NCBI GenBank assembly: GCA_003524085.1 | Contig: DOEC01000006.1 | Span: 1,146-65,145 of the forward strand | Direction: 5' to 3' | Origin: Bacillota bacterium | Lineage (GTDB): Bacteria > Bacillota_I > Bacilli_A > RF39 > UBA660 | Length of the DNA: 64,000 nt | Shown: positions 9,896 through 26,300 of the stretch, one piece after another | Numbering within the stretch: position 1 is the first letter of the stretch | Layout of the letters: each line of letters starts with the position of its first letter | Made by a program: the position numbers and the translations under genes | The notes under the pieces: generated by a model | Seen by the model: the letters and a program-made list of their open reading frames with translations, nothing else | The model's database searches: none | What the model was told of the DNA's origin: nothing

Positions 9896-9954
9896 GTAAC
9901 CACCAATACAAGTATAATAAAAACGACAAGCATATTTTGTCGTTTTATAGTTTT

Positions 9955-10845: not shown

Positions 10846-10932
10846 ATTAATTTATGATAATTCTTAGCTGCTACTTTAGCATTTTCATTTATTATTTCAG
10901 TCTTTATATTACTTAAATATTTTTCTTCCATA
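10846..10932 (-). pseudogene. 5' remnant of a further DUF1016/YhcG-like gene copy
   Basis: The minus-strand translation MEEKYLSNIKTEIINENAKVAAKNYH then breaks off. The nucleotides are near-identical to the 5' ends of the downstream paralogs. Confidence 0.5.
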
Positions 10933-10943
10933 AGCTTTTCCTC

Positions 10944-11852
10944 CTAACTAATTTGCACAGTTTTATTTATTTTAAATTCTACTATAGTTACTTGATTATC
11001 TTTTACGTAATGAGCTTCAAACTTATTTACTGACTTTGTTATAATTATTCCAATAGTACTATTTTGAGTTATATTTTTTAAGTGTTCGTCAATATAGTTC
11101 ATATACGTTTTTATTTGACCATAGTCACTTTTCTTATATTCTCTTGATTTTATCTCTACTACACAATATCTACTTTCAACCACATTATAAAATAGATAGT
11201 CTATATAATTCTTTTTGTCTCCAATGTTAAGTTTATATTCTCTTCCGACGTAAAAATATCCACCGCCTAATTGTTTCATAAAACTATCTAAGTTTTCATA
11301 AATAATTTCTTGTAATATTTTTTCAGTATAAACTTCATAACTTTTATTAGGTGTTAACACTATTGGACTGGGGACACTTTGAATTAAAGAAAGTTCTTCT
11401 TTATTTAAAAGACTTTCTTTTGCTTCAGTTGAGAGTCTACCATACTCATTACTCTTTATTCTTTCAGCTAATGCTCTTTTACTTAAATTATCTCGTTTAG
11501 TAATATGAATATAATACTTAATTTCTTTGATATCTCTTAGTGATAATAAAATCTTGTAATGACTCCACGTCAATTGTCGCTCCAGTGGAGCGACTTTTTG
11601 AATTAATAAATAAAATTGTTGTATCTTATATAAATCTTTTTCCTTATATCCACTTCCAAATTCCTTAGTTAAAATACTTGCATATTTTTTTACTATTCCT
11701 TCTCCATAGTGTTTACCTGCTTCTACTAGTTCCCTTCCTATATTATAATTCATTGTAAGTTTTACATTATTTATCTGATAATTCTTAGCTACTACTTTAG
11801 CATTTCCATTTATTATTTCAGTCTTTATATTACTTAAATATTCGTCTATCAT
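10944..11852 (-). CDS. DUF1016/YhcG-family PD-(D/E)XK nuclease-like protein, tandem paralog 1
   Basis: The N-terminus has DUF1016_N hallmarks (LTWSHY, KRALAERI). The C-terminus has a PD-(D/E)XK-like D...EIK block (NYIDYLFYN...CVVEIKSREY). Confidence 0.75.
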   Translation of the reverse strand: MIDEYLSNIKTEIINGNAKVVAKNYQINNVKLTMNYNIGRELVEAGKHYGEGIVKKYASILTKEFGSGYKEKDLYKIQQFYLLIQKVAPLERQLTWSHYKILLSLRDIKEIKYYIHITKRDNLSKRALAERIKSNEYGRLSTEAKESLLNKEELSLIQSVPSPIVLTPNKSYEVYTEKILQEIIYENLDSFMKQLGGGYFYVGREYKLNIGDKKNYIDYLFYNVVESRYCVVEIKSREYKKSDYGQIKTYMNYIDEHLKNITQNSTIGIIITKSVNKFEAHYVKDNQVTIVEFKINKTVQIS

Positions 11853-11864
11853 AAATTTTCCCTC

Positions 11865-12773
11865 CTAACTAATTTGCACAGTTTTGTTTATTTTAAATTC
11901 TACTATAGTTACTTGATTATCTTTTACATAATGTGCTTCAAACTTGTTTACTGATTTTGTTATAATTATTCCAATAGTATTATTTTGAGTTATATTTTTT
12001 AAGTGTTCGTCAATGTAGTTCATATACGTTTTTATTTGACCATAATCGCTTTTTCTATATTCTCTTGCTTTTATTTCAACTACACAATATCTACTGTCAA
12101 CTACATTATAAAATAGATAATCTATATAATTCTTTTTGTCTCCAATGTTAAGTTTATATTCCCTACCAATAAAAGCGTAGCCTCCACCAAGTTGATGCAT
12201 AAAATCTTCTATATTTTCAAAGATTATTTCTTGTAATATTTTTTCAGTATAAACTTTATAACTTTTATTAGATGTCAACACTATTGGACTTGGGACACTT
12301 TGAATTAAAGAAAGTTCTTCTTTATTTAAAAGACTTTCTTTTGTTCCATCTGAAAGTCTATCATACTCATCACTTCTTATTATTTCAGCTAATTTTCTAT
12401 AACTTAAATTATCTCTTATAGAAATATTAGTATAATAATTGATTTTATTGATATCTTTTAAAGGTAAAAGTAATCTTATGTGTTCCCAAGTCAATTGGTG
12501 CGGCAATGCCGCACCTTTTTCAAAAAGAACATAAAATTGACGCATTCTCTTTAAATTAGATACAGAATATCCACTTCCAAATTCCTTAGTTAAAATACTT
12601 GCATATTTTTTTACTATTCCTTCTCCATAGTGTTTACCTGCTTCTACTAGTTTCCTTCCTATATTATAATTCATTGTAAGTTTTACATTATTTATCTGAT
12701 AATTCTTAGCTGCTACTTTAGCATTTCCATTTATTATTTCAGTCTTTATATTACTTAAATATTCGTCTATCAT
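11865..12773 (-). CDS. DUF1016/YhcG-family PD-(D/E)XK nuclease-like protein, tandem paralog 2
   Basis: It has the same architecture as paralog 1. The N- and C-terminal thirds are near-identical to paralog 1 and the central region is divergent. Confidence 0.75.
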   Translation of the reverse strand: MIDEYLSNIKTEIINGNAKVAAKNYQINNVKLTMNYNIGRKLVEAGKHYGEGIVKKYASILTKEFGSGYSVSNLKRMRQFYVLFEKGAALPHQLTWEHIRLLLPLKDINKINYYTNISIRDNLSYRKLAEIIRSDEYDRLSDGTKESLLNKEELSLIQSVPSPIVLTSNKSYKVYTEKILQEIIFENIEDFMHQLGGGYAFIGREYKLNIGDKKNYIDYLFYNVVDSRYCVVEIKAREYRKSDYGQIKTYMNYIDEHLKNITQNNTIGIIITKSVNKFEAHYVKDNQVTIVEFKINKTVQIS

Positions 12774-12785
12774 AAATTTTCCCTC

Positions 12786-13694
12786 CTAACTAATTTGCAC
12801 AGTTTTGTTTATTTTAAATCCTACTATAGTTACTTGATTATCTTTTACATAATGAGCTTCAAACTTATTTACTGATTTTGTTATAATTATTCCAATAGTA
12901 CTATTTTGAGTTATAGTTTTCAAGTGTTCGTCAATGTAGTTCATATACGTTTTTATTTGGCCATAATCGCTTTTCTTATACTCTCTTACTTTTATTTCAA
13001 CTACACAAAAACAGTTCATTTTGTAATTGTATAAAAGATAGTCTATATAATTCTTTTTATCTCCAATATTGAGTTTATATTCTCTACCAATAAAAGAGTA
13101 TTCTCCACCAAGTTGATGCATAAAATCTTCTATATTTTCAAATATTATTTCTTGTAATATCTTCTCATTATAAAATTCATAGCTTTTATTTGGTGTCAAT
13201 ACTATCGGACTGGGTATGCTTTGAATTATTGAAAGCTCTTCTTTGTTTAAAATACCCTCTTTCGTTTCAGTTGAAAGTCTGCCATACTCATTACTTCTTA
13301 TTCTTTCAGCCAATGCTCTTTTGCTTAAATTATCTCGTTTAGTAATACTAATATAATACTTGATTTCTTCTACATTTTTTAATGGTAAAAGTAATTTATA
13401 ATGAGACCAAGTCAAAAGTTGCCCCACTGGAGCAACTTTTTGACTTAAATCATAAAATTGCTTCATTCTTGTTAATTCTGTAAAAGTATATCCCTTACCA
13501 AATTCTACCGTTAATTCCTTTGCATATTTTTTTACTATTCCTTCTCCATAATGTTTACCAGCTTCTGCTAGTTCCTTACCAATATTATAGTTCATTGTAA
13601 GTTTTACATTGTTTATCTGATAATTTTTAGCTATTACTTTAGCATTACCATTTATTATTTCATTCTTTATATTTTCTAAATAATTGTCTATCAT
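12786..13694 (-). CDS. DUF1016/YhcG-family PD-(D/E)XK nuclease-like protein, tandem paralog 3
   Basis: It has the same architecture as paralog 1. It is preceded by the conserved about 90-bp leader. Confidence 0.75.
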   Translation of the reverse strand: MIDNYLENIKNEIINGNAKVIAKNYQINNVKLTMNYNIGKELAEAGKHYGEGIVKKYAKELTVEFGKGYTFTELTRMKQFYDLSQKVAPVGQLLTWSHYKLLLPLKNVEEIKYYISITKRDNLSKRALAERIRSNEYGRLSTETKEGILNKEELSIIQSIPSPIVLTPNKSYEFYNEKILQEIIFENIEDFMHQLGGEYSFIGREYKLNIGDKKNYIDYLLYNYKMNCFCVVEIKVREYKKSDYGQIKTYMNYIDEHLKTITQNSTIGIIITKSVNKFEAHYVKDNQVTIVGFKINKTVQIS

Positions 13695-13696
13695 AA

Positions 13697-13790
13697 ATTT
13701 TTCCTCCTAATATATTTATTCGACAAAAAACGCGAAAAGTCTTTTTTTTATTTTGACTTTACGCGAAATTCGACGTGTTTTTTTACATGT
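13697..13790 (-). promoter_or_regulatory. Conserved leader element (copy 1) upstream of paralog 3; it contains paired ACGCGAAA and TCGAC motifs
   Basis: It is near-identical to 26205-26300, as read directly from the sequence. Confidence 0.5.
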
Positions 13791-13925
13791 TTTGTGTAAA
13801 CTAAGTTATAAAAAAAGAAAGGATAAACAACTTATAAAAGCTATTTGCTCCTTCCCCATAAAAATTGATGCTTTAGCAAAAGTAAGCATCAATTATTTTT
13901 TATTTTTTTTTGATTATTTGATTTT

Positions 13926-15368
13926 TTAAACAATTGAGAATAACATCAATACTAAAATGTTTACTATTGCAATTGTTATAACTACTTTTAATGCCCATTT
14001 GAACCAAGTTGAATAGTCTACTTTAGCAAGAGCAAGTCCTCCCATTATTGCTCCACAAGTTGGAGTTATTAAGTTTACTAATCCATTTGCACTTACAATA
14101 GTCATAGCCGCTACTTCAGTTGAATAACCTAAGCTTGCAGCAAGTGGTCCAGTTATTGGAGTTGAAAGTGTTGCAAGTCCACTACTTGATGGTACTAAGA
14201 ATGATAACACTATATGTAGTAAGTAGTTTAGTGGAACGAATACTAATTCTGGTAGTTTACTTAAATGTTCAGTTGCATTATAAATAATGTAATTGTCTAA
14301 GTAAGTTTGTTTCATTAATACAGAAGCTCCTCTTGCTACTGCTATTACTAAGATAACACCTATCATATCTTTTGTTCCATCAATAAATGTATCTACAAAC
14401 TCTTTTTCTTTGTAACCATTGATTAAAGATATTACTATACTCATTAAGAAGAACCAAAGTGCAGACTCGTAGAAGTACCAGTTACCTAAACTAGAGCCTG
14501 TAAGCCATCCAGTAAATCCATCAAAGAAAGTTATGTCAAATTCTCCCCATGGAATAAATCCTATAATCATTATTAAGAATGTTAAAGCAAAAACACATAA
14601 AGTTATTTTTTGTTTTGTAGTTAAAACTTCTTTTTGCTTTGATTTTTCCTCAAATTTACCAAATTCTTTTTCAGCTTCTTCTTGCTCTCTTAAAGAAAGT
14701 ATAGTTGAACCTTTATCTTTTTTAACTTTACTTGCATAAGCTAACACAAACAATGTTGATATTAGGTAAGCTAATAACCATAAGATTATGCCTATAAATA
14801 ATACAGTTCCTTGATTATATTCTACACCAGCTGCTCTTAAAGCAGATAATACAGCTCCTGTTGCAAATGGGTTAACTGTTGAACCAAGAACACCAGTACC
14901 AGCACCTAATAAAACTACTGCTGCACCTACAAGTGGGTCCATTCCTGCGGCAAACATCGTAGCTGCTAGAAGTACGTAGAAGCCAACTGTTTCTTCAAGC
15001 ATTCCATATGTTGTACCACAAATTGAGAAGATAAACATTAATATTGGTATTAACCATAATTCTTTACCTTTTAATTTTTGTACTAAAACTTTGATACCTG
15101 TTTCTAAAGCCTTAGTTTTGTCTATTATTTTAAGGAATCCTCCTAAAATAAGTACGAATATTGCAACATCTACAGCATTTTCAAATCCCAATATTGGTGC
15201 TAGTAAGATTTGGCTTAATTTAGCCCCTACTGTACCACTTCCATTTACTATTTCTTCACCAACGAATTTAGCATCTGGTAGTAAATGTGAAAGAATTCCA
15301 AGTACTACTATAACTATCATTATAATAGTATATGCTGATAACATGCTTCTATTCTTTTTCTTTGTCAT
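13926..15368 (-). CDS. Polytopic membrane transporter, YfcC/DcuC-like anaerobic carrier family; putative arginine/ornithine exchanger of the ADI operon
   Basis: About 12 TM segments are present. It is co-oriented with and immediately upstream of arcC-arcB-arcA. The family assignment is from overall character, not from a diagnostic motif. Confidence 0.55.
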   Translation of the reverse strand: MTKKKNRSMLSAYTIIMIVIVVLGILSHLLPDAKFVGEEIVNGSGTVGAKLSQILLAPILGFENAVDVAIFVLILGGFLKIIDKTKALETGIKVLVQKLKGKELWLIPILMFIFSICGTTYGMLEETVGFYVLLAATMFAAGMDPLVGAAVVLLGAGTGVLGSTVNPFATGAVLSALRAAGVEYNQGTVLFIGIILWLLAYLISTLFVLAYASKVKKDKGSTILSLREQEEAEKEFGKFEEKSKQKEVLTTKQKITLCVFALTFLIMIIGFIPWGEFDITFFDGFTGWLTGSSLGNWYFYESALWFFLMSIVISLINGYKEKEFVDTFIDGTKDMIGVILVIAVARGASVLMKQTYLDNYIIYNATEHLSKLPELVFVPLNYLLHIVLSFLVPSSSGLATLSTPITGPLAASLGYSTEVAAMTIVSANGLVNLITPTCGAIMGGLALAKVDYSTWFKWALKVVITIAIVNILVLMLFSIV

Positions 15369-15369
15369 A

Positions 15370-16305
15370 TTATTTTCCTCCTTTTATGACTGTACCATTT
15401 TTATATTCTAATGCGTCACTAGCGCATTCTAGCGATGTAATTATTGCAGTTTTATTTCTGTTTTCTACAAAATTTATACATGCTTCTATTTTAGGCAGCA
15501 TACTTCCAGGAGCAAACTGGTTATCACTTATATACTTTCTTGCTTCTTCTACTGTGATAGTATCTAACCCAGTCATATTTTCTTTATTGTAGTTTAAGTA
15601 TACTTTATCAACAGCAGTTAATATAAGTAACACATCAGCATCTACTTCTTTAGCAAGTAAACTAGCTGACTTATCTTTATCAATTACTGCATCTACTCCT
15701 TTTAGAAGATTATTTTCCATTATAACTGGAACTCCTCCACCTCCAGCACATATAACAATTACATCATCTTCAACAAGTTTTTTTATAACTTTGTCATTTA
15801 GTATTTTTTTAGGTATAGGAGATGGTACTACTCTTCTATATCCACGGCCTGCGTCTTCTTTAAAAATGTAACCTTTTTCACTTTCTATTACACTGGCTTC
15901 TTCTTTAGTGTAAAACATTCCAATAGGTTTAGTAGGATTTTTAAAACATCCATCATTTTTATCAACTAAGACCTCTGTTATTAAGGCTACTATAGATTTG
16001 TCAATGTCTCTTTTGTTTAGTTCATTCATTATTGACTGTTCTATATGGTAACCAATATAACCTTCACTCATACTACCACACTCTGCAAATGGCATTGATG
16101 GAGTAGCAGCACTTCCATTACTAGCATACTCCATTGCAAGAGAGATTTGCCCAACTTGCGGTCCATTTCCATGTGTAAGTATTACTTTGTTACCTTTTTC
16201 TATAAGGTCCACTATTACTTTAGAAACACCCTCTAGAATAGATAATTGTTCACTAGGAGTCTTCCCTAGAGCATTTCCTCCTAGAGCTATAACTATTTTA
16301 CTCAT
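15370..16305 (-). CDS. arcC: Carbamate kinase
   Basis: The N-terminus is [13 protein letters not shown] and the protein is about 310 aa, typical of carbamate kinase. It lies in the ADI operon. Confidence 0.9.
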   Translation of the reverse strand: MSKIVIALGGNALGKTPSEQLSILEGVSKVIVDLIEKGNKVILTHGNGPQVGQISLAMEYASNGSAATPSMPFAECGSMSEGYIGYHIEQSIMNELNKRDIDKSIVALITEVLVDKNDGCFKNPTKPIGMFYTKEEASVIESEKGYIFKEDAGRGYRRVVPSPIPKKILNDKVIKKLVEDDVIVICAGGGGVPVIMENNLLKGVDAVIDKDKSASLLAKEVDADVLLILTAVDKVYLNYNKENMTGLDTITVEEARKYISDNQFAPGSMLPKIEACINFVENRNKTAIITSLECASDALEYKNGTVIKGGK

Positions 16306-17297
16306 TACTCTTCCCTCATTGTTAGATATATTACAGCTTTAATTGTATGTAATCTATTTTCAGCTTCATCAAATACTTTTGATTTTGGACTATTAAATAC
16401 TTCGTCAGTTACTTCCATTTCTTTTAGACCAAATTTTTCATATATCTCTTTTCCAATTGTTGTATTTAAATCATGAAATGATGGTAAGCAGTGTAAAAAT
16501 ATTGCGTTTTCGCTTGCATTTGACATAACACTCATGTTTACTTGATATGGACTAAGTAATTTAATACGACTAGCCCATACTTCATCTGCTTCTCCCATTG
16601 AAACCCATACGTCAGTATATATTACGTCAGCACTCTTAGTAGCAACATTTACGTCTTCTTCTAAAGTTATAGTACACCCATTAGTACTAGCAATTTCCTT
16701 ACAAGTATTAACTAACTCTTCTTGTGGCCATAATTCACGTGGAGCACATGCTACAAAGTTTATTCCCATTTTAGCACATACTACCATAAGTGAATTTGCA
16801 ACGTTGTTTCTAGCATCTCCCATAAATACTAACTTTAAGCCCTTTAAATATCCAAAGTTTTCTTCAATAGTCATAATATCTGCAAGCATTTGTGTTGGAT
16901 GAAATTCTGTTGTAAGTCCGTTCCATACAGGTACTCCAGCATTTTTGGCTAACTCTTCTACTATTGTTTGACTGTATCCACGATATTCTATTCCATCATA
17001 CATTCTACCTAATACTTTAGCAGTATCAGCAATACTTTCTTTTTTACCCATTTGACTAGCATTAGGATCTAAATACGTCACTCCCATACCAAGGTCAAGT
17101 GCAGCAACTTCAAAAGCACATCTTGTTCTAGTTGAAGTTTTTTCAAATAAAAGTACAATGTTTTTATTTGGTAAATATTTATGTTCAATATGTAATTTCT
17201 TTTTTTCTTTAAAATCTTTAGATATGTCTAGTAAAAACCTTATTTCTTCAGGTGTATAATCTAATAATTTTAAGAAATGTCTTCCTGTTAAATCCAT
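16305..17297 (-). CDS. arcB: Ornithine carbamoyltransferase (catabolic)
   Basis: The STRTR and HCLP motifs are present. It lies between arcA and arcC. Confidence 0.9.
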
Positions 17298-18541
17298 TAT
17301 ATATCCTCCCTAACTAGTGGCATACTCATACATCTTGGGCCACCTCTTCCACGTGATAATTCAGCACTTGGCATTTCAAGAACTTTTATTCCGTGTTCTC
17401 TTAGTATATTGTTAGTCATGTTGTTTCTATCGTATACTACTACTACACCAGGCGCTATACAAAGAGTGTTTGTTCCGTCATTCCATTGTTCTCTTTCACT
17501 AGATATTTTTTCTCCTCCAGCACATGGAATAAGTGTAATTTTCTTTCCAAGATATTTTTCTAATATTTCTTCTAAACTACCTTCTACTTTTTTAACATTT
17601 AAGTCTTCAAATGTAGTTGGATCATCTCCTTCAGTAATTTCGTAAACTTCTAGAGTGTTCATTATTCCTGGATGGTATGTAAACTTATCATAATCTATTT
17701 GTGTAAATACAGTGTCTAAATGCATAAATGCACGACTTTCTGGTATTTTGAAAGATAGTACTGTTTCTACTTCACAAGTAGGTTCTTTAAATAAGTTTTT
17801 AGCAAGTTCATCAATTGCGGCAGGCTCTGTTCTTTGTGAGATACCTACAGCAATAACTTTATTACTTATGTTTAATACGTCTCCACCTTCAATGTGGTAA
17901 GGTAGGTTTCTACTATAGTACCTTTTTACTTTACCCTTGAAGTCAGGATGATACTTGAATATAAAGTCAGCATATATAGTTTCTCTATTTCTAGTAACTG
18001 AATACATTCTATTTAGTATTGCCCCGTTACCACAGCTTGCGAATGGGTCTCTTGTAAAGTAGAGGTTTGGTATTGGGTCAGCTAAGAAGTCACTCTCATC
18101 ACTTACAAAGTCAACTAAGCTTTTTTCTACTTCTCTTTTTCTTAATGGTATTTCTTCTATTTTTATACCACTCATTGTTTTTAATACTAATTCTTTTTTA
18201 TCAGTAAAGCTATGTAAGTAGTCATATACTAGAGTTCTATATTTAGGAGTAGTTATTCCAGCTTCATAGATAAATTCTTTTAGAAATTCGTCTAGTATTT
18301 CTTCACTAATACTTAATACTTCACTAACTAGGTCTTCTAGATATACTACTTCTATACCATTTTCTTTTAGAATTCTTGCGAATTCGTCGTGTTCAGCTTG
18401 CGCGACTGGTAAGAAAGGTATATCATCAAATAAAAGTCTTCCTAATGTATCTGGAGTTAGATTAAGCAGTTCATTTCCAGGTCTATGAAGAAGTACTTTC
18501 TTAAGTGGACCTATTTCACTTTTAACATTAATTCCTTGCAT
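17297..18541 (-). CDS. arcA: Arginine deiminase
   Basis: It is a typical ADI of about 410 aa with the C-terminal catalytic Cys context ([11 protein letters not shown]). Confidence 0.9.
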
Positions 18542-18908
18542 AAATCATTTCCTTTCTTTTGTAGTGTTCCTACTATAATAAGTATACCAGTAAAACTTAA
18601 GTTTTTCAACTAAAAAAACATATAAACTATTATTAATTTATATATTTTAATTTTAAATTATTTATTATATTAATGCACTCTGTAAGTTGACAAGAAGTTT
18701 TCTTTTTTCTTACAAAACGCAAGAAAGAAAGACGTCTATCTGTTAGTATTAAGATAAATGTTAACAAATAACCAAAGATTGGCGTCTAATCACTAAACGT
18801 TCCTTACGTTTATATTGTATACTATTTTTTGTTTTATGCAAGTATTTTTACTATTATGTTAATTATTTCATCTTTCATTGCATTGTAATTTAAATCATGA
18901 TGTTTATG

Positions 18909-19430
18909 TTATACTACTACATAACAATAATTATCTACTAGTCCAATAATTATATGCACTTGTTCATTAATATGATATTCATTAAATCCATTATTTAAAA
19001 GTATTGTACTTATTTTTTCAGTTATCAATTGTTCTCTACTTTTAAATATATCACTTATTTCTGGGTCTAAGTGACTCATTGCCATTAATTCTTCGTGAGC
19101 TTCTTTTTTTATATTGTGTACACTAATAAACTTTTCTATTATTTTACTTAGTAGTAAATTAATACTAGTTTTATCAATTATTACATTGTCTATTATATCT
19201 ATCATTGGAAACATTATTTTATCAGTATAATCTTTTACTCCATGAATAAATATTTCTCTTTTATCTTTAAAATACTGATATATTATTCCAGTAGAAAAAC
19301 GTGCATATTTCGCAATATCAACACATGTTACATTATGGTAAGCTTTTTAACACATTAATAAAAAACCTTTTTCAATAATTGTTTTTTTCTTTTTTATTTA
19401 AGTCTTTTTTATAGGTTCATGTACATTCAT
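18909..19430 (-). pseudogene. TetR/AcrR-family regulator interrupted by two in-frame TAA stops
   Basis: The frame starts from an RBS-preceded ATG at 19430 and reads MNVHEPIKKT*IKKKKTIIEKGFLLMC*KAYHNVTCVDIAKYARFSTGIIYQYFKDK. The TetR HTH is intact and runs on into the 101-aa C-terminal ORF. The stops are at 19398-19400 and 19347-19349. Confidence 0.65.
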
Positions 19431-19440
19431 ATGAACCTCC

Positions 19441-20370
19441 TTATATTTTAGTATAGCATTTGGTTTTCAAAAAACTTTTAATTTCTTTTATATTTTTACT
19501 TTCATAATAATTAATTAAAAGAAGTTTAAATTCATCAGTTAATTCTGAAGGTATACTAATTATTCCTAAACCATTTTTAATAAGATAATGATTAGCAAAT
19601 ATAACTGCAGTTCTTTTGTTACCATCTACATATATTTGTTTTTTCATCGTATATAAAAGTAGTTCTATTGCTTTGTCAACTTTATTATTTTTTTTATTTA
19701 TAATTTTGTTAAGTTCGTCTTTAACATCACTTTCAATGGGTATACCAGGCATCCAAGAAGTTCCACCTATTTTAACTGGAACGCTTCTTATTTTGCCAGC
19801 TGTGCTATAAAATCCTTCTATACATAGTTTATTAATTTCACAAAGTAAATTATAGTCTGTTGGTGAAAGTAATACTCCTTCACTTAGAACAAATTCCCAT
19901 GCATGTTTTAAATCAAGAACTTTTAAAACGTCAGTAGAAGATATTCCACTTACTTCCCCACCTTCAATTATTGTTTCAGTAAGAGCAAAAGTTGTTGATA
20001 TTCCTTCTAAGACTGCTTGTTTGTAAATTGTATCAACTAAATTTCTTTTTGCAAAGTCAACATTTAATTTAACTTTATCGCTAAGAACAAAATTATCTAC
20101 ATTTTCTTCTTTTAAAATATTATTTAATCTTTTTATCTCTTTTTTTAATTCTTTAACTTTTATATTATTATTTAGTATTAGGTTATATAATTCATCACTA
20201 TATTCTCCTACATATCTACTTATTAGTTTTCCATTATCTCTATAGTGAACATAAATATATTTATTACATTCCTTATCTCTAACTTCAATTGAGCCATGTA
20301 TAATAGAAGAAACTTGAGTTTCTAATCTTTTTTTATCATCTAACATACCAATTAATTCAACATTTTTCAT
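19441..20370 (-). CDS. Fic/Doc-family protein with a Doc-type DGNKR motif in which the motif His is replaced by Gln
   Basis: The C-terminal motif reads QIYVDGNKRTAVIFANHYL, against the Doc consensus HxFx(D/N)(A/G)NKR. Confidence 0.45.
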   Translation of the reverse strand: MKNVELIGMLDDKKRLETQVSSIIHGSIEVRDKECNKYIYVHYRDNGKLISRYVGEYSDELYNLILNNNIKVKELKKEIKRLNNILKEENVDNFVLSDKVKLNVDFAKRNLVDTIYKQAVLEGISTTFALTETIIEGGEVSGISSTDVLKVLDLKHAWEFVLSEGVLLSPTDYNLLCEINKLCIEGFYSTAGKIRSVPVKIGGTSWMPGIPIESDVKDELNKIINKKNNKVDKAIELLLYTMKKQIYVDGNKRTAVIFANHYLIKNGLGIISIPSELTDEFKLLLINYYESKNIKEIKSFLKTKCYTKI

Positions 20371-20469
20371 ACTATATCTCCTTTATATACATTATAACAC
20401 ACCTTTAAAAAAATGTGAAACATTTTAAGTGTTTTTTCACTGATTTTGTTTCACATTTTGTTATACTAA

Positions 20470-21480
20470 TTATTTATTACTTTTTATTTCATTAACTAAG
20501 TCTTTAATTGTATATTTAATACTTCTTGTTTGATAATCTAAATCTTTTTTTGCTTTAGCATTTGTAAAGTTAGAATTAGCATTTAATGTATACAATGAAT
20601 ACCTAGTAAATAATGGTGTTGTTTTTCTAAGTCTATAATATAATTCAAATAAAAACGCAATATTTTTAACCATGTTTATTGAAATAACTTTTTTTATTGG
20701 TTTAGCTTTTCCATACTCACAAACCAAATCAGCTATTTTTTTAATAGTTACATATTCACCTGATAAAATATATCCTTCTCCTTTTTTACCTTTAGTACAA
20801 GCATTAATAACACCTCTAGCAACATCTCTTACATCAACAAAGTCATACCCACCCTCAGTTAATAAAGGAACTTTTTCATTTAAGATTTTTTTTATTAAAA
20901 CTGTCATATTAGTATTGGTAAAATCATTTACCCCTAATAAACCTGAGGGGAAAACAACACAAGCATTTAAATTATTGTTTTTAACTTCATTAAATACATA
21001 CCTAGTTGTTTCAGCTTTAGTCTTTGCATATAAACCAACAATTTTATTTGGATCAAAACTTGCATTTTCATCCATTACTTCATGATTTAATTTTTCTTCT
21101 ATTGCATGTACACTACTAACATAGATTAGTTTAGCATTTATTTCTTTGGCTTTTTTTATAATGTTTTTAGTACCTTCAACATTAACTTGATATACTCTTT
21201 CGTTATATTTACTATCAAGGTATACTATTGAAGCACAATGAATAACATAAATATTTGTTTTTTCTTTAACACTTTCATCAATATTAAATATATCCTTTAA
21301 TGTTTCTATCTTTGTTACATCACCAAGGAATTTTTCGCATTTAAGCCCTTTAAGAGCATCTATTTTATCGTTAGGCAAAACTAATGCTCTTATTTCATTT
21401 TCATTATTTTTTTCTAGTAACCTTACAATATTATTTCCAAGAAAGCCATTAGCGCCTGTTATTATATAAATATTTTTCAT
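20470..21480 (-). CDS. NAD(P)-dependent epimerase/dehydratase-family oxidoreductase (extended SDR)
   Basis: The N-terminus has a Rossmann GxxGxxG motif (ITGANGFLGNNIV) and a YxxxK motif is present. Confidence 0.75.
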   Translation of the reverse strand: MKNIYIITGANGFLGNNIVRLLEKNNENEIRALVLPNDKIDALKGLKCEKFLGDVTKIETLKDIFNIDESVKEKTNIYVIHCASIVYLDSKYNERVYQVNVEGTKNIIKKAKEINAKLIYVSSVHAIEEKLNHEVMDENASFDPNKIVGLYAKTKAETTRYVFNEVKNNNLNACVVFPSGLLGVNDFTNTNMTVLIKKILNEKVPLLTEGGYDFVDVRDVARGVINACTKGKKGEGYILSGEYVTIKKIADLVCEYGKAKPIKKVISINMVKNIAFLFELYYRLRKTTPLFTRYSLYTLNANSNFTNAKAKKDLDYQTRSIKYTIKDLVNEIKSNK

Positions 21481-21641
21481 ATATTACACCACCATTTCCT
21501 TATAAATTTTTCTAGAAATACCACCCCATCATAGTGTTCTTGTTCAAATATTAGTAATATATTTGAAATCTATTATTTAAATTCTTAGTAGACCTTTATA
21601 ACCAATTTAATATACAATATTTATTATTACACGTATTTTAT

Positions 21642-22364
21642 TTACCTTTTATGACTTTTCATAAAATCTTTTATTCTTTTATTTTTAGTTGTTTTTAATT
21701 CTTCACTTGTTCCATTAAATATAATATTACCATTTTCTAAAAACAATACTCTCGTTGATACTTCAGTTACAAATCTCATTTCATGACTTACTATAATAAG
21801 AGTCATTTTTTTATTTGCAAGTTCTTTTATTAAATCAAGTACCTCTTTTACCATTTCCGGATCAAGCGCACTAGTGGGTTCATCAAACAAGATTACTTCA
21901 GGTTTCATAATTAATGCTCTTACTATTGCTACTCTTTGTTTTTGACCACCTGAAAGTTCAGATGGATACGCATCTTTCTTATCAAGTAAACCAACACTTT
22001 CTAAAAGTTTTAATGCTTCACTAGTAGATTTTCCTTTACTCATAATTTTTAAATTTATAGGTGCTAAAGTAATGTTTTCTAATACTGTTAAATGTGGAAA
22101 CAAGTTAAAACTTTGAAATACCATACCCATTTTTTCTCTTACATGACTTACATTAATATTGTTTTTAGTTATATCCACTTTATGAAAAAGTATTGTTCCA
22201 TCATCAGGCTTTTCTAATAAATTTAAACATCTTAAAAGTGTTGATTTACCACATCCACTTGGACCAATTATACTTATAACATCTCCCTTTTTAACATCAA
22301 AAGAGACACCTTTTAGTACTTCTAAAGAACCAAAGCTTTTCTTCAAATTCTTAATTTTTAGCAT
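21642..22364 (-). CDS. Amino-acid ABC transporter ATP-binding protein
   Basis: The Walker A motif is GPSGCGKST, the signature is LSGGQKQR and the Walker B motif is ILFDEPTSALD. Confidence 0.9.
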   Translation of the reverse strand: MLKIKNLKKSFGSLEVLKGVSFDVKKGDVISIIGPSGCGKSTLLRCLNLLEKPDDGTILFHKVDITKNNINVSHVREKMGMVFQSFNLFPHLTVLENITLAPINLKIMSKGKSTSEALKLLESVGLLDKKDAYPSELSGGQKQRVAIVRALIMKPEVILFDEPTSALDPEMVKEVLDLIKELANKKMTLIIVSHEMRFVTEVSTRVLFLENGNIIFNGTSEELKTTKNKRIKDFMKSHKR

Positions 22365-23031
22365 TGTTTAGTCTCCTTTCCATTAGGTTTACTAATTTAG
22401 AAAGACCTAAAGTCATTATTAAATATATTATTGCTACAATTATAAGTGGGAAAAAGTAGTCATATGTTCTAGAAGAAATTATGTCCGAAGCTTTTGTTAG
22501 TTCTAAAATTCCAATATATGCTCCTACTGATGTTTCTTTTAAAAGTGTTATAAACTCATTACCTAATGCTGGAAGTATATTTTTTATAGCTTGTGGCAAG
22601 ATTATTAACTTCATAGTCTTATGATAGTTTAATCCTAAACTTAAACCTGCTTCTAATTGTCCGTTGTCTATGCTATTAATTCCAGAACGGATTATTTCAC
22701 TTACATAAGCACCCGAATTTATTCCAAAAGCTATTATCCCAACTAATGTTATATTAATGTTTACACTTTTAAATATTACATAATAGATTATCATTAACTG
22801 AAGTATTACTGGAGTTCCCCTTATTACATTAACATAAATTTCACATATTTTATTTAATATTTTTCCTTTTTTATTTACTTCATAATTATTTCTTATTAAT
22901 GAGACTAACGTTCCAATTATTATACCTATTATAACAGCAAAAAAAGCAATTATAACTGTAGTTGTTAATCCACTCAAAATATATTTATATCTATCATCTA
23001 CAATTAATGTTTTATATAAACTATCTTTCAC
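22351..23031 (-). CDS. Amino-acid ABC transporter permease
   Basis: It is a polytopic membrane protein with an EAA-like loop. It is translationally coupled to the ATPase. Confidence 0.85.
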   Translation of the reverse strand: MKDSLYKTLIVDDRYKYILSGLTTTVIIAFFAVIIGIIIGTLVSLIRNNYEVNKKGKILNKICEIYVNVIRGTPVILQLMIIYYVIFKSVNINITLVGIIAFGINSGAYVSEIIRSGINSIDNGQLEAGLSLGLNYHKTMKLIILPQAIKNILPALGNEFITLLKETSVGAYIGILELTKASDIISSRTYDYFFPLIIVAIIYLIMTLGLSKLVNLMERRLNNAKN

Positions 23032-23044
23032 TCTTTACTCCTTT

Positions 23045-23761
23045 TTATTTTGTATGATTAATTATATATTCTTCTATTTTCCCACTACTTTTTAACTCTT
23101 CTAAACACTCATTAATACTATTAAGTAATTCAGTATTTCCTTTTCTAACTATCATTCCATAAGAGTCAGTTACTAAGTAACCTGGTAATATTTTAAGTTC
23201 TGTATTTTCTTTTACAATTTCTTTAGCTGGTAACTCATCCATAACTAGTACAGTAACTTTTCCTCTTTTTAAGTCCTCTACTGCACTTAAATATTTCTTT
23301 TGTCTTACTATTTCAGTATCTTTAAAGTTTTTTGTTACATAAGAGTCAGCAATTGTACCTAGTTGTACTGCAATTTTTTCTTTTGAAATATTGTTTATAC
23401 TTTCTATATTGCTATCAGTTTTCACTAATACAACCTGTTTAGATGTAACATAATTTATGCTAAAGTCTACTTCTTCGTCTCTTTCAGGAGTATAACTAAT
23501 TCCTGCTGCAGCAAAGTCTGCCTTTTTAGTTTTCACTTCATTTATAAGTGAGTCAAAAGCCACATCCTTAATTACTAATTTCTTGTTTAATTTTTCAGCA
23601 ATATATTTAGCTATGTCAACATCTACTCCTACAATTTCCCCGTTTTCATAATATTCATAAGGAGCAAAACCTGCTTCTGTAACCATTACTAATTCATCAC
23701 TATTTTTAGTACATCCACATAGAATAAAAGTTATAACAATTAACACAAAAATTTTTTTCAT
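23045..23761 (-). CDS. Amino-acid ABC transporter substrate-binding lipoprotein
   Basis: A signal peptide is present with the lipobox LCGC. It has the size and composition of a family-3 SBP. Confidence 0.8.
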   Translation of the reverse strand: MKKIFVLIVITFILCGCTKNSDELVMVTEAGFAPYEYYENGEIVGVDVDIAKYIAEKLNKKLVIKDVAFDSLINEVKTKKADFAAAGISYTPERDEEVDFSINYVTSKQVVLVKTDSNIESINNISKEKIAVQLGTIADSYVTKNFKDTEIVRQKKYLSAVEDLKRGKVTVLVMDELPAKEIVKENTELKILPGYLVTDSYGMIVRKGNTELLNSINECLEELKSSGKIEEYIINHTK

Positions 23762-23835
23762 AATATACCTACTTTCTTAATAATAAATATACCACAAATT
23801 AGTTTCTTTTACAATAAAAAAAGTTAGACTTAACA

Positions 23836-25248
23836 CTAACTTTCTATATATTTTCCATTTAAGCTAAAACTATGAGCTTCAGTAATTATAACATCTACTA
23901 TTTGTCCGATTAAATCTTTATCACTTTCAATATTAACTAGCTTCATATTTTCAGTATATCCCATGTATTTTTTAGGATCTTTTTCGCTTGGAGAAACAAC
24001 TAGGCATTTAACAACTTTATCTACCATTTTTAAGTTACTCTCTAGGCTATATTTATTTACTAGTTCATTTAATTTGTATAGTCTACTTTCTTTTTCTTCT
24101 TTTGGAGTATCATCAGGTAGTTTCATAGCTGGTGTACCCACTCTTGGACTAAATATAAATGTGAAAGCTCCATCAAATTTGCAAGTGTTTACTACGTCAA
24201 GTGTCTCATTAAAATCACTTTCTGTTTCGCCTGGAAATCCAACTATTATATCAGTTGTTATACTTACACCTTTTACTTTAGTTCTTATTTTGTTATATAA
24301 AGTAAGATACTCTTCTTTTGTATACTTTCTTCCCATAAGTTTTAATATTCTATCGCTTCCACTTTGAATTGGTAAGTGCACGTATGGCATAACGTTATCA
24401 TATTTACTTATCACATCTATCATTTCATCAGTAAAGTCCCAAGGATGTGACGTAACAAACCTAATTCTCTCAATATTAGTTTTTGCTACATCTATAAGCA
24501 AGTTTGCTAAAGTATAGTCTTCATACAAGTCTTTTCCATAAGCGTTTACGTTTTGTCCAAGAAGAGTTACTTCTTTGTAGCCTTCACTTTTAAGTTTTTT
24601 TATTTCTTTAATGATGCTTTCCTTTTTTCTACTTCTTTGAGTACCTCTAGTGTAAGGGACTATACAGTATGTACAGAATTTATCACAACCTAATTGTATA
24701 TCTACCCATGCAGAATACTTGCTTTCTCTTTTTTCAGGTATTCCCTCACATATATTACCTTCTATACTATATACTTCTACGTTTTGTTTACCAGTTTTTA
24801 TAGAGTTATTTATTACATTAACCATATTATCTAAGTTGTGTGTTCCAAATACAAAGTCTACATATTTATATTTAGACATAATTTCATTTACTACACTTTC
24901 TTCTTGAGCCATACATCCACATATTCCAAGTAGTATATCATGATTTTCTTTTAATTTTTTAACTAGACCTAGAAAACCAAAGACTTTGTCATGGGCATTT
25001 TCTCTAATAGCACAGGTGTTTAAAATAACTATGCTTGCTTCTTCAATATTGTCAGTTTCAACCATTCCATTTTGTGATAATACTCCTTTTACTCTTTCTC
25101 CATCGTGGACGTTCATTTGACATCCATAAGTTCTTACATAGTATTTTTTCCCTATTAAACTTTCATCTAAACTTACATCTTTATATTCATAATTTATTGG
25201 TTTACTATTGTTTCTTTTTTTTGCTTCTAACATATTAGGTACTTGCAT
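23836..25248 (-). CDS. miaB: tRNA (i6A37) methylthiotransferase MiaB (radical SAM)
   Basis: The N-terminal MTTase block is TYGCQMN, the radical-SAM motif is CDKFCTYC, and a C-terminal TRAM domain is present. Start was chosen at MQVPNM with an AAGGAAG RBS. Confidence 0.85.
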   Translation of the reverse strand: MQVPNMLEAKKRNNSKPINYEYKDVSLDESLIGKKYYVRTYGCQMNVHDGERVKGVLSQNGMVETDNIEEASIVILNTCAIRENAHDKVFGFLGLVKKLKENHDILLGICGCMAQEESVVNEIMSKYKYVDFVFGTHNLDNMVNVINNSIKTGKQNVEVYSIEGNICEGIPEKRESKYSAWVDIQLGCDKFCTYCIVPYTRGTQRSRKKESIIKEIKKLKSEGYKEVTLLGQNVNAYGKDLYEDYTLANLLIDVAKTNIERIRFVTSHPWDFTDEMIDVISKYDNVMPYVHLPIQSGSDRILKLMGRKYTKEEYLTLYNKIRTKVKGVSITTDIIVGFPGETESDFNETLDVVNTCKFDGAFTFIFSPRVGTPAMKLPDDTPKEEKESRLYKLNELVNKYSLESNLKMVDKVVKCLVVSPSEKDPKKYMGYTENMKLVNIESDKDLIGQIVDVIITEAHSFSLNGKYIES

Positions 25249-25384
25249 AAATTCACTTCCTTTCAAGTAGTTACAAATATATCACTAAATGTGGTTATTG
25301 TCAATTATTTTAGGTGTTTTATAAGTTACAAAATTAAGTGAATTCATTGGAAAACCTTTAACAAAACTAAAGGCAGCTAAATCT

Positions 25385-25483
25385 TTGATTTCTGTCAAAA
25401 AGGTGTGACAGTTTCGCACTTTTTTGAAAACATCTTATATGAGCCATTTAAATTTCCAACCACTGGTTGGAATTTTTTTGAAA
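25385..25483 (+). other. Two strong hairpins followed by a T-run: CTGTCAaaaaggtgTGACAG and TTCCAACCAcuGGTTGGAA+TTTTTTT, a terminator-like structure with no upstream plus-strand CDS
   Basis: Both structures are perfect inverted repeats read directly from the sequence. Confidence 0.3.
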
Positions 25484-25559
25484 TTTGTTAGATGGTATTA
25501 TTATAGTACTAGGTACCATTTCTTTTGCTTGAGTTTCTGTTTTTTTCTTTTAATTTGAT

Positions 25560-25997
25560 TTCTTGTTTTCAAAGATAATTTATCGTATTCATTAATTTTT
25601 ATTTTTTTCTCTAAGTGCACGCTCACTTAAATTACCTCGTTTAAGTTATATTAATGTAATACTTGATTTCTCCTAAGTTTTTTAAAGGTAAAAGTAATTT
25701 ATAATGTGACCAAGTCAATTGGTCATCCAATGGATGACCTTTTTCAATAAAATTATGGAATAATCTCATGTATTTAAGATTTGTAATCCCGTAATTTGTA
25801 CCAAATTCTTTTGTTAATTCTTTTGCATACTTTTTAACTATACCTTCGCCGTAGTGTTTACCAGCTTCTGCTAATTCCTTTCCAATATTATAATTCATTG
25901 TTAGTTTTACATTGTTTATCTGATAATTCTTAACTATTAATTTAGCATTACCATTTATTATTTCACTCCTTATATTCTCTAAATAATTTTCTTCCAT
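25560..25997 (-). pseudogene. Fourth DUF1016/YhcG-like copy, frameshifted and 3'-truncated
   Basis: The intact 118-aa N-terminal ORF (MEENYLENIRSEIINGNAK...LTWSHYKLLLPLK) stops at 25638-25640. At that point a 1-nt insertion is present relative to paralog 3. Similarity decays downstream. Confidence 0.7.
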
Positions 25998-26204: not shown

Positions 26205-26300
26205 AACCCTCCTAATATATTTATTCGACAAAAAACGTGAAAAGCCTTTTTTTATTTTAACTTTACGCGAAATTTAACGTGAAATTTTACACAAAAATGT
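26205..26300 (-). promoter_or_regulatory. Conserved leader element (copy 2), about 200 bp upstream of the truncated fourth copy
   Basis: It is near-identical to 13697-13790. The short TTACA...TGTAA segment is inverted relative to copy 1. Confidence 0.5.

Follow-up and report, generated by a model that had tools for sequence, protein, structure and literature searches.

An in-frame Watson-Crick palindrome, variable in sequence and conserved in structure, within genes of the DUF1016/YhcG nuclease family

The DUF1016/YhcG family consists of predicted nucleases that are known from mobile elements and restriction-modification (R-M) loci (PMC4316617, PMC9881135). It is among the commonest uncharacterised nuclease families of bacteria, is enriched in restriction-modification and defence loci, and has a member in Escherichia coli K-12. 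The present analysis began with a 64,000-nucleotide (nt) stretch of DNA from a Bacillota bacterium (contig DOEC01000006.1, positions 1,146 to 65,145; hereafter the window), in which three tandem DUF1016/YhcG genes and a truncated fourth copy each carry a short hairpin. We find that a palindrome is present at the same codon position in every DUF1016/YhcG nuclease gene that was sampled and that the four hairpins of the window are local copies of one ancient element. The core of this element comprises 8 base pairs (bp), 3 nt and 8 bp, with a centre, C-A-N-T-G, that is nearly universal, and in most members the flanking sequences CAATT and AATTG lengthen the arms to 13-14 bp. The element measures 19-31 bp, is mostly perfect, and lies at about codons 87-93 of a gene of 300-375 codons. 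The sequence of the arms varies freely between genes, with both arms changing together. Family-wide and in frame, this Watson-Crick palindrome is under selection at synonymous as well as non-synonymous sites.

The genes of the window are on the minus strand and will be referred to as paralog 1 (10944-11852), paralog 2 (11865-12773), paralog 3 (12786-13694) and copy 4 (25641-25997). In paralog 1 the palindrome is perfect over 8 bp (11576-11594; plus strand GTCGCTCC-AGT-GGAGCGAC, sense strand GTCGCTCC-ACT-GGAGCGAC), covers the codons for VAPLER plus Q, residues 87-93, and is unchanged in 22 related contigs. Paralog 2 also has a perfect 8-bp palindrome (12497-12515; plus strand GGTGCGGC-AAT-GCCGCACC, sense strand GGTGCGGC-ATT-GCCGCACC; GAALPH plus Q), of which a relative possesses the compensated variant GGTGCGCC-ACT-GGCGCACC. 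That of paralog 3 has a core at 13418-13436 with one mismatch, C/A on the plus strand (GTTGCCCC-ACT-GGAGCAAC) and T.G on the sense strand (GTTGCTCC-AGT-GGGGCAAC); it stretches to about 17 bp (13409-13446) through the flanking AAGTCAAAA/TTTTGACTT, and its sequence is shared by 11 related contigs. The palindrome of copy 4 is again perfect over 8 bp (25721-25739; plus strand GGTCATCC-AAT-GGATGACC, sense strand GGTCATCC-ATT-GGATGACC; GHPLDD plus Q). An initial annotation, made from the letters of the window, had reported four hairpins with 8-bp stems and 3-nt loops at one shared codon position, and both the sequence and an alignment of the genes confirm it: the hairpins occupy identical alignment columns, just before L-T-W-S/E-H and, on the sense strand, between a conserved AAAAAG and TTGACNTGG. 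It had also described the stems as differing in sequence within DUF1016 paralogs of low-GC (guanine plus cytosine) DNA, which holds as well, since the arms differ and the window has a GC content of 28.3%. In contrast to the 0.045 perfect hairpins of this geometry with at least four G-C pairs that are expected from first-order Markov (Markov-1) simulations of the window, four are observed, and all four perfect GC-rich palindromes lie within DUF1016-derived DNA. Folding z-scores of the hairpins range from -3.1 to -5.5 on both strands. What the initial annotation missed was a tract of five T residues that follows the stems on the antisense strand, to which we return below, and the extent of the phenomenon throughout the family.

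A fifth perfect hairpin with an 8-bp stem and a 3-nt loop is found at 25454-25472 (sense strand CAAAAAAA-TTCCAACC-AGT-GGTTGGAA-ATTTAAATGG; it may also be written TTCCAACC-ACT-GGTTGGAA, with seven T residues next on the plus strand). It has the canonical centre and flanks made of an A-run and AATT, and it stands where the homology of copy 4 to intact genes ends, at about residue 172. This hairpin is either a solo remnant or a rearrangement junction. It is located about 150 nt upstream of a promoter-like site (-35 at 25304) of a miaB-like gene.

The extent of the palindrome in the family was gauged at the level of protein and of DNA. In 92 family representatives with pairwise identities below 50%, the seven residues that precede L-[ST]-W-x-H are hypervariable, and pairing is possible between the first codon bases of residues 1 and 7 in 70, of residues 2 and 6 in 74, and of residues 3 and 5 in 77 of the 92, compared with 39, 32 and 38 when the columns are shuffled. 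For DNA, metagenomes were scanned with a degenerate pattern that specified the flanking codons only (F-Y, 12 free codons, L-[ST]-W-S-H-Y). The 120 stretches selected by their flanks in this way yielded 87 unique open reading frames (ORFs) with GC contents of 23-64%, and in these genes the fixed register gives 7.15 of 8 Watson-Crick pairs; no shifted register gives more than 3.5. Among the 87 genes there are 44 distinct arm sequences. Homologs on distant plasmids and phages, with 20-30% protein identity and 32-64% GC, carry the palindrome at the same place in 15 of 15 cases, with perfect arms of up to 14 bp. The distant set includes Rhodococcus, Arthrobacter, Cnuibacter, Burkholderia, Hydrogenophaga, Comamonas, Citrobacter, Serratia, Legionella, Thiodictyon, Nostoc, Chryseobacterium, Simkania, Thiospirochaeta and the Wolbachia phage WO, and thus spans, besides this phage, the Actinomycetota, Beta- and Gammaproteobacteria, Cyanobacteriota, Bacteroidota, Chlamydiota and Spirochaetota. 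The expectation that a palindrome would be met at the same codon position in homologs from other genomes is therefore borne out. When the whole gene is divided into 30-nt bins, the canonical bin holds 99 perfect stems and every other bin at most 8, and in the surrounding DNA (782 kb) such stems have a background density of 3.6 per 100 kb. Full-text searches of the literature brought up no mention of a hairpin or palindrome in DUF1016/YhcG genes; a sequence search of the PDB gave nothing bearing on the hairpin; and Rfam 15, at E≤1, returned no family, its sole match being a spurious microRNA elsewhere.

Could the palindrome be a by-product of chance, of a conserved peptide or of codon usage? 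Some features lend this idea a degree of plausibility. The codons of Gly, Ala and Pro are rich in GC and in part self-complementary, and the invariably hydrophobic residue 4 of the heptapeptide dictates a T as the middle base of its codon. A test is provided by the fact that five of the eight core pairs join a base determined by the protein to a synonymous third position. At these pairs, 4.63 of 5 are Watson-Crick, compared with 1.63±0.10 after synonymous codons are resampled according to the usage of each gene (z about 30). For the whole core the same resampling predicts 3.76 rather than 7.15 of 8 pairs, and 0.1 perfect stems rather than the 37 found among the 87 genes. In the flanks, too, all the synonymous sites take the base that pairs: ATT and not ATC, NAA and not NAG, TTG or TTA and not CTN, and CCA; these pairing codons are used, against codon bias, even in genomes with 59-64% GC. 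Moreover, the peptide is hypervariable rather than conserved, which excludes it as the cause, and complementarity collapses in shifted and slid registers. Together with the excess of perfect hairpins in the window, these results rule out an origin by chance or as a by-product of the peptide or of codon usage, which we regard as vanishingly improbable.

Evidence for compensatory change comes from an alignment of 75 distinct hairpins. In this alignment 87.6% of the cells are paired, against 64.1±0.9% after shuffling, and there are 213 double-sided changes, where shuffling leaves 64.5±6.6. The covariation score is 0.542, compared with 0.125 for shuffled alignments and with at most 0.11 in slid registers, and two-sided changes are seen at 12 of 13 pairs, as compensatory substitution demands. 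Close relatives provide instances in which new stems occupy the same codons by an exact two-sided swap: GGTGCGGC...GCCGCACC versus GGTGCGCC...GGCGCACC, and TTGGGGGC...GCCCCCAA versus TTGGGGCC...GGCCCCAA. The proposal in the initial annotation that a nucleic-acid structure is kept by compensatory change while the peptide varies thus receives strong support, and it extends to the whole DUF1016/YhcG family. In an AlphaFold 2 (AF2) model of paralog 1, with a predicted local distance difference test (pLDDT) score of 89.5, the heptapeptide lies in the one long loop, which spans residues 88-95 and joins the N-domain helices H71-87 and H96-103. This model and the hypervariability of the heptapeptide place the palindrome in a tolerant, surface-exposed segment, and the position of the loop between helices would therefore allow the protein to follow a constraint imposed by the nucleic acid.

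Covariation of this kind might also arise without any benefit to the gene. An ancestral inverted repeat, lodged in a tolerant loop and passed on by descent, could be held perfect by a mutation bias, namely intra-strand template switching (quasipalindrome correction or arm-to-arm conversion). Template-switch hotspots at quasipalindromes are established in E. coli. As this explanation requires, the arms change in concert, including clustered changes of the central 7 nt between nearly identical genes, and the complementarity is symmetric and of the Watson-Crick type only; truncated copies still have perfect palindromes, and one persists as a solo remnant, and in E. coli, as described below, the number of units varies and junctions fall at hairpin edges, as they would for an unstable palindrome. 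The rate of change speaks against it. Between genes whose flanks share at least 93% identity, differences are seen at 0.4-0.5% of stem sites and at 2.7-11% of flanking third positions, although this comparison is based on a small sample of 42 non-independent pairs; a neutrally evolving repeat would not be expected to lag behind its synonymous neighbours. At greater distances most changes in the stem are two-sided (163 versus 55 one-sided). Slow stems whose changes are mostly two-sided argue for purifying plus compensatory selection and not for a self-converting repeat that drifts neutrally. In addition, mismatches persist across strains, and the palindrome is kept in essentially all the sampled lineages, across phyla and the range of GC content, against codon bias and in spite of the proneness of palindromes to deletion. 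No other protein family is known to us to harbour an in-frame palindrome that is similarly "immortal". For these reasons we consider a non-adaptive origin unlikely.

A selected structure might reside in the DNA or in the transcript, and several features of the hairpins bear on this distinction. The loop is mostly A-N-T, and its positions 1 and 3 are complementary in 67 of the 75 hairpins. Codon 3 always ends in a purine: Thr, for example, is encoded by ACA 56 times and by ACG 7 times, but never by ACC or ACT. The complementary loop ends and the purine-ending codon 3 make the element a palindrome about a single base. The 75 hairpins contain, on the sense strand, 12 G.U, 30 A.C and 16 other non-Watson-Crick pairs. 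If a structure in the transcript were being preserved, G.U pairs should be tolerated in preference to A.C pairs, and they are not. G.U pairs make up 29% of the transition mismatches on the sense strand, compared with 38% under a coding-aware null in which transitions are weighted by amino-acid acceptability, and the corresponding share of A.C, 71% against 62%, does not depart from this null (p=0.21), so that there is no wobble preference for either strand. The converse idea, that the excess of A.C over G.U reveals a structure in the antisense strand, was dropped, since the coding-aware null accounts for the asymmetry; being set by the genetic code, it is no evidence for either strand. Where a wobble alternative would be silent and leave the protein unchanged, it is rarely used: in 17 of 261 opportunities of the sense type and in 24 of 399 of the antisense type (6-7%). 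The paralog-3 U.G pair, which the initial annotation had taken as a sign of RNA-level structure, is therefore not representative of the family. Central symmetry, the lack of a wobble preference and the avoidance of silent wobble point to complementarity of the DNA type, and the element has the form expected of a DNA hairpin or cruciform: a perfect, symmetric inverted repeat with a spacer of no more than 3-5 nt and Watson-Crick pairs only. We therefore favour a DNA-level palindrome over a messenger RNA (mRNA) hairpin, and infer that what is preserved is the capacity of either strand to fold back on itself.

A hairpin in the sense mRNA of the DUF1016 gene has nevertheless to be considered. Such a structure might pause the ribosome or RNA polymerase, act as a barrier to exonucleases, present a site of the RNase III type where the arms reach 13-14 bp, or serve the protein as an autoregulatory site of repression or cleavage. 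An RNA helix would fit the covariation and the pairing at synonymous sites equally well, and the genes are transcribed, often in operons with overlapping start and stop codons. The sense U.G pair of paralog 3 is kept in 11 contigs, and the three tandem units of the E. coli K-12 gene recall repeated RNA modules. Besides the results with G.U pairs, it is difficult to reconcile with this explanation that the two ends of the loop are complementary, a property not required of an RNA triloop, and that perfect hairpins survive in truncated gene fragments; no U-tract follows the stem on the sense strand, and Rfam offers no match. Overall, we judge a role in the mRNA rather unlikely.

In the window the stems resemble intrinsic terminators when read on the plus strand, antisense to the genes, and a TTTTT tract lies directly 3' of each stem (11595-11599, 12516-12520, 13437-13441 and 25740-25744). 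These tracts result from the Gln/Glu-Lys codons CAAAAA/GAAAAA, which in the window subfamily replace the usual Pro-Ile (CCAATT). If the stems terminated plus-strand transcripts, they might end a regulatory antisense RNA or insulate the gene from antisense read-through. Antisense RNAs regulate some restriction-nuclease genes. The combination of stem, loop and T-tract is found at all four window stems and at those of close relatives, and in an 18-kb scan these stems are the top plus-strand sites, with 10 sites found compared with 3.0±1.5 in shuffled sequence. Furthermore, the conserved 3' part of each paralog contains a promoter-like plus-strand site, TTCAAA-18 nt-TATAAT with an extended TG (11016-11045, 11937-11966 and 12858-12887), some 530 nt upstream of the stem. 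Sites of this kind, however, occur at the frequency expected by chance in DNA so rich in AT (126 versus 115.6±11.6), and this one is in conserved sequence that has undergone gene conversion. A tract of five T residues is short for a terminator, and the neighbouring genes are all on the minus strand. More decisive is the situation in the rest of the family: in 46 of the 75 hairpins the stem is preceded by ATT and in only 15 by AAA, and the antisense flank reads AATTGG in most members and in all the GC-rich homologs. With the T-tract absent from most of the family, termination cannot explain the conserved palindrome, and as its explanation we hold it to be very unlikely. In paralog 3, CAA has changed to CTT, which is complementary to the A-run and gives a longer palindrome of about 17 bp; this fits selection for self-complementarity and not for a free T-tract. 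Antisense termination may be a local extra in the window subfamily. Three further readings of the window copies were discarded. Programmed frameshifting at A-AAA-AG is contradicted by a zero frame that matches the Pfam domain across the site, by a stem spacing of 0-1 nt and by an A-run that is not family-wide; an internal translation start by way of GGAG in the 3' arm would apply to paralog 1 only; and resemblances of single stems to matS or to restriction sites are coincidental, as the arms are not conserved.

The yhcG gene of E. coli offers a view of structural variation at the palindrome. The K-12 gene has three units, in tandem and in frame, that are based on CAGAC-NNN-GTCTG and include one with a perfect 14-bp arm, and E. 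coli alleles contain one, two or three units of 39 nt, depending on the strain. The gene is present in 4,465 of 5,426 complete E. coli genomes and is represented by at least 80% of the K-12 gene in 3,349. In O157:H7, yhcG has a single perfect 12-bp unit, AATTCGCCAGAC-AGT-GTCTGGCGAATT, followed by ...LPWSTY, and the K-12 gene is longer by 78 bp, which corresponds to two extra 39-nt units; an allele of 92% identity carries a different set of units. Length alleles of yhcG have been reported (PMC3514354), and the gene is one of the LSPA-6 length markers used for lineage typing of O157:H7. One class of truncated alleles breaks off precisely behind ...GTCTGCCAAAT (nt 406), where unrelated DNA takes over, as in an allele replacement, and in another class the end of an IS1 element abuts TGGCAGAC (nt 385). 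Positions 385 and 406 are the two edges of hairpin 3. A non-coding RNA of E. coli, G0-10703, was also considered; it overlaps only the 5' untranslated region of yhcG and not the hairpins.

In E. coli and in the window, then, rearrangement junctions lie at hairpin edges, and the palindrome appears to act as a hotspot of structural variation; that it is retained universally is all the more remarkable. These junctions raise the possibility that the palindrome exists for the sake of recombination, as a site of module exchange at which breakage or template switching swaps the N-terminal 90 or so residues against the rest of the protein, or alters copy number, and thereby diversifies a defence gene. 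DUF1016 genes are enriched beside programmed-inversion loci (PMC9881135). Consistent with exchange are the E. coli alleles truncated or replaced exactly at hairpin 3, the variable number of units, the solo hairpin at the copy-4 junction, an array size that varies from two to three copies among strains related to that of the window, and the mosaic genes L118 and L107, whose C-parts are about 80% and N-parts about 40% identical, with no such outliers at a control boundary. A family-wide test for mosaics, however, identified no more than one or two lineages in which a break falls close to the hairpin, too few to carry this hypothesis, and the N-part evolves faster in any case. The arms differ between genes and so provide no homology for exchange, and the window hairpins are situated inside the most divergent block rather than at its boundary. 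No recombinase is consistently associated with the genes, and selection for evolvability is in general weak. We think it quite unlikely that recombination is what the palindrome is for. The initial annotation had named a recombination hotspot and a cis-recognition site among its candidate roles; both are compatible with the data, the junctions at hairpin edges included. Its interpretation as a whole is supported in part.

Comparison with known systems also places the element, and it lacks at least one defining feature of each of those compared. The attC sites of integrons are palindromic, conserved in structure and variable in sequence, with conserved outer boxes, comparable to CAATT/AATTG here, and free inner arms; they act as folded DNA and are associated with horizontally mobile genes. 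They differ in measuring 57-141 bp, in their position at the 3' end of a cassette, in the extrahelical bases that mark one strand and in their need for IntI, whereas the DUF1016 element, at 19-31 bp, is perfect or nearly so, sits at a fixed codon inside a region that encodes a domain and is inherited with one protein family. No integrase gene is annotated next to the window copies. Rickettsia palindromic elements (RPEs), repetitive extragenic palindromes (REPs) with the bacterial interspersed mosaic elements (BIMEs), and Correia-type elements resemble it in that, for the RPEs, translated palindromic DNA is tolerated as a surface segment, and clustered REPs resemble the tandem units of yhcG. 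Those elements, in contrast, are mobile, multi-copy, conserved in sequence and scattered over unrelated genes and intergenic DNA, while here there is one site per gene, the same across phyla, with unrelated arms; no dispersed, sequence-similar copies of the palindrome were found in the 64-kb window outside DUF1016 DNA. With intrinsic terminators the window copies share a GC-rich 8-bp stem, a 3-nt loop and a plus-strand TTTTT, but DUF1016 stems are antisense to the gene, inside coding sequence and mostly without a T-tract. RNA hairpins in coding regions, such as viral cis-acting replication elements and autoregulatory RNase sites, likewise have a fixed position, compensatory substitutions and a varying peptide; the DUF1016 element differs in its intolerance of G.U, its complementary loop ends and its retention in truncated fragments.

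The 13-14 bp arms and 3-nt loop found here fall in the size class of cruciform and DNA-hairpin elements (the 13-bp inverted repeat of the ColE1 type, the pT181 origin and the hairpin promoters of phage N4, with 3-nt loops), which are short perfect repeats with centres of 3-5 nt that function only when their DNA is extruded or folded. To the same class belongs the Vibrio exsA cruciform, which is attenuated by HlyU (PMC10325908). The known examples are intergenic, at origins and promoters, and confined to a single replicon, and none is in frame or co-inherited with a protein family. Finally, the quasipalindrome hotspots of E. coli also show coupled changes that keep the arms complementary, at sites linked to indels, but they are described as mutational and not as long-conserved, whereas DUF1016 stems are more conserved than the neighbouring synonymous sites. 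There is a real possibility that this structure-conserved, sequence-variable nucleic-acid element is categorically new.

If the palindrome acts as DNA, it may be a cis-acting hairpin or cruciform element that travels with a potentially toxic, horizontally mobile nuclease gene. The structure might be read by universal DNA transactions, such as extrusion driven by supercoiling or replication, or by the dimeric nuclease itself, and the gene would thereby be controlled wherever it lands, whatever its promoter or genomic context; as a side effect, the site would turn into a hotspot for indels and rearrangements. Taken as a whole, we regard this DNA-level cis function as the most likely explanation, at somewhat less than an even chance. 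Several considerations weigh against it. The proposed reader and the proposed benefit, self-limiting expression, are hypothetical, as is extrusion or folding in vivo. The wobble tests make an mRNA structure less attractive without disposing of it, because a strongly selected RNA helix could also avoid G.U pairs. The symmetry of the centre is imposed in part by the Leu, Val or Met residue, which requires a T in the middle of codon 4. With 8 bp, the arms in the window are short for a cruciform to extrude, though they fold readily in single-stranded DNA, and mismatched variants persist, the T.G of paralog 3 in 11 contigs and a GGC variant in 5. To these may be added the small sample behind the comparison of rates in close relatives and the fact that the E. 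coli structural variants represent only about four independent events.

Within the DNA-level reading, a more specific version, to which we assign a rather low probability, is that the dimeric DUF1016 nuclease recognises the palindrome as its cognate nucleic-acid ligand, a putative portable, promoter-independent operator or "self" site carried in the gene's own reading frame. Gene and target would then be inherited as one unit in R-M operons, plasmids and prophages. Were this so, it would reveal the substrate class and control logic of PDC-S02/YhcG and would define a previously undescribed kind of cis element, a family-wide in-frame DNA palindrome; and if the reader is the nuclease or DNA supercoiling, mobile toxic genes would have a new way to carry their own regulation. 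Whatever the function, a palindrome of 19-31 bp that is fixed at one codon position across phyla while the protein yields shows with unusual clarity that the structure of DNA or RNA can be selected within a gene, and part of the protein alignment of the family has been shaped by base pairing and not by protein function. The natural E. coli alleles with one, two or three units offer a cheap experimental handle on an orphan family.

In some distant loci the arrangement of the DUF1016 gene and its neighbours is of interest in itself. On conjugative plasmids of the IncHI/IncP type from Citrobacter, Hydrogenophaga, Klebsiella, Pseudomonas and Salmonella, the gene for a site-specific integrase overlaps the DUF1016 start by 4 nt, resembling an integrase-DUF1016 operon (L149, 1754-4017; L150, 1697-3957), and in two plasmid loci the overlapping gene encodes a tyrosine integrase. 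DUF1016 genes are also wedged into restriction-modification operons with start and stop codons that overlap those of both neighbours, which are a methyltransferase and a helicase in one case (L179) and hsdM and hsdS in another (L180). The homolog on an Arthrobacter plasmid (L151, 2902-3945) is split into separate ORFs for the N-domain and the nuclease, about 25 codons past a perfect 13-bp palindrome.

The array of the window remains to be described. Its three genes, identified from the ORF list and confirmed by Pfam and alignment, have 302 codons each, paralog 3 being the first and paralog 1 the last, and they are separated by 12-nt spacers (GAGGGAAAATTT) that contain a Shine-Dalgarno sequence. 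Each combines PF17761 (DUF1016_N) with PF06250 (YhcG_C), a PD-(D/E)xK nuclease domain, at 88-96 and 100-108 bits, above the gathering scores, which places them in the DUF1016/YhcG family. PADLOC classifies the window genes, paralog 1 among them, as the defence candidate PDC-S02, and the nuclease fold is nearest to EndoMS/NucS, Can2/Card1 and the Shedu nucleases. Copy 4, from the same sources, has an intact N-terminal ORF of 118 residues in which Pfam detects the N-domain only, and its homology runs on beyond this ORF, with frameshifts, to about 25475. The N-terminal 26 codons of a further copy, detected by tblastn and lacking a hairpin, are located at 10854-10931 on the minus strand. This remnant comes directly after paralog 1, has its own Shine-Dalgarno-like spacer and in related contigs is an ORF of 32 residues; the array was therefore once longer or is eroding from its 3' side.

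Relatives of the organism are uncultured human-gut Bacilli and Clostridium sp. CAG:628, and a scan of a genome collection with the alignment of the paralogs recovered five close loci. Among strains from related gut metagenomes (L156-L165) the array, which lies between a gene for a DcuC-type transporter and the spoIIGA/sigE genes, is polymorphic, with three copies, two copies, or three copies of which the first is frameshifted. In another group of strains (L166-L174) a gene like paralog 1 is followed by an N-terminal fragment of 160 residues that abuts a convergent gene of the TetR family; the same fragment is found in 9 contigs and retains the perfect compensated hairpin GGTGCGCC-ACT-GGCGCACC. 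The leader upstream of paralog 3 (...CGCGTAAAGTCAAAATAAAAAAAAGACTTTTCGCGTTTTTTGTCGAATAAATATATTAGGAGG, 13700-13790) is repeated upstream of copy 4 (26215-26290), where about 215 extra nucleotides separate it from the start codon. A different palindrome, with A/T-flanked 11-bp arms (AAAACGACAAGCATATTTTGTCGTTTT), lies at 9920-9946, between a spoIIGA-like gene and the upstream ORF of 268 residues; its scores are terminator-like on either strand, which probably makes it a bidirectional terminator of the ordinary kind.

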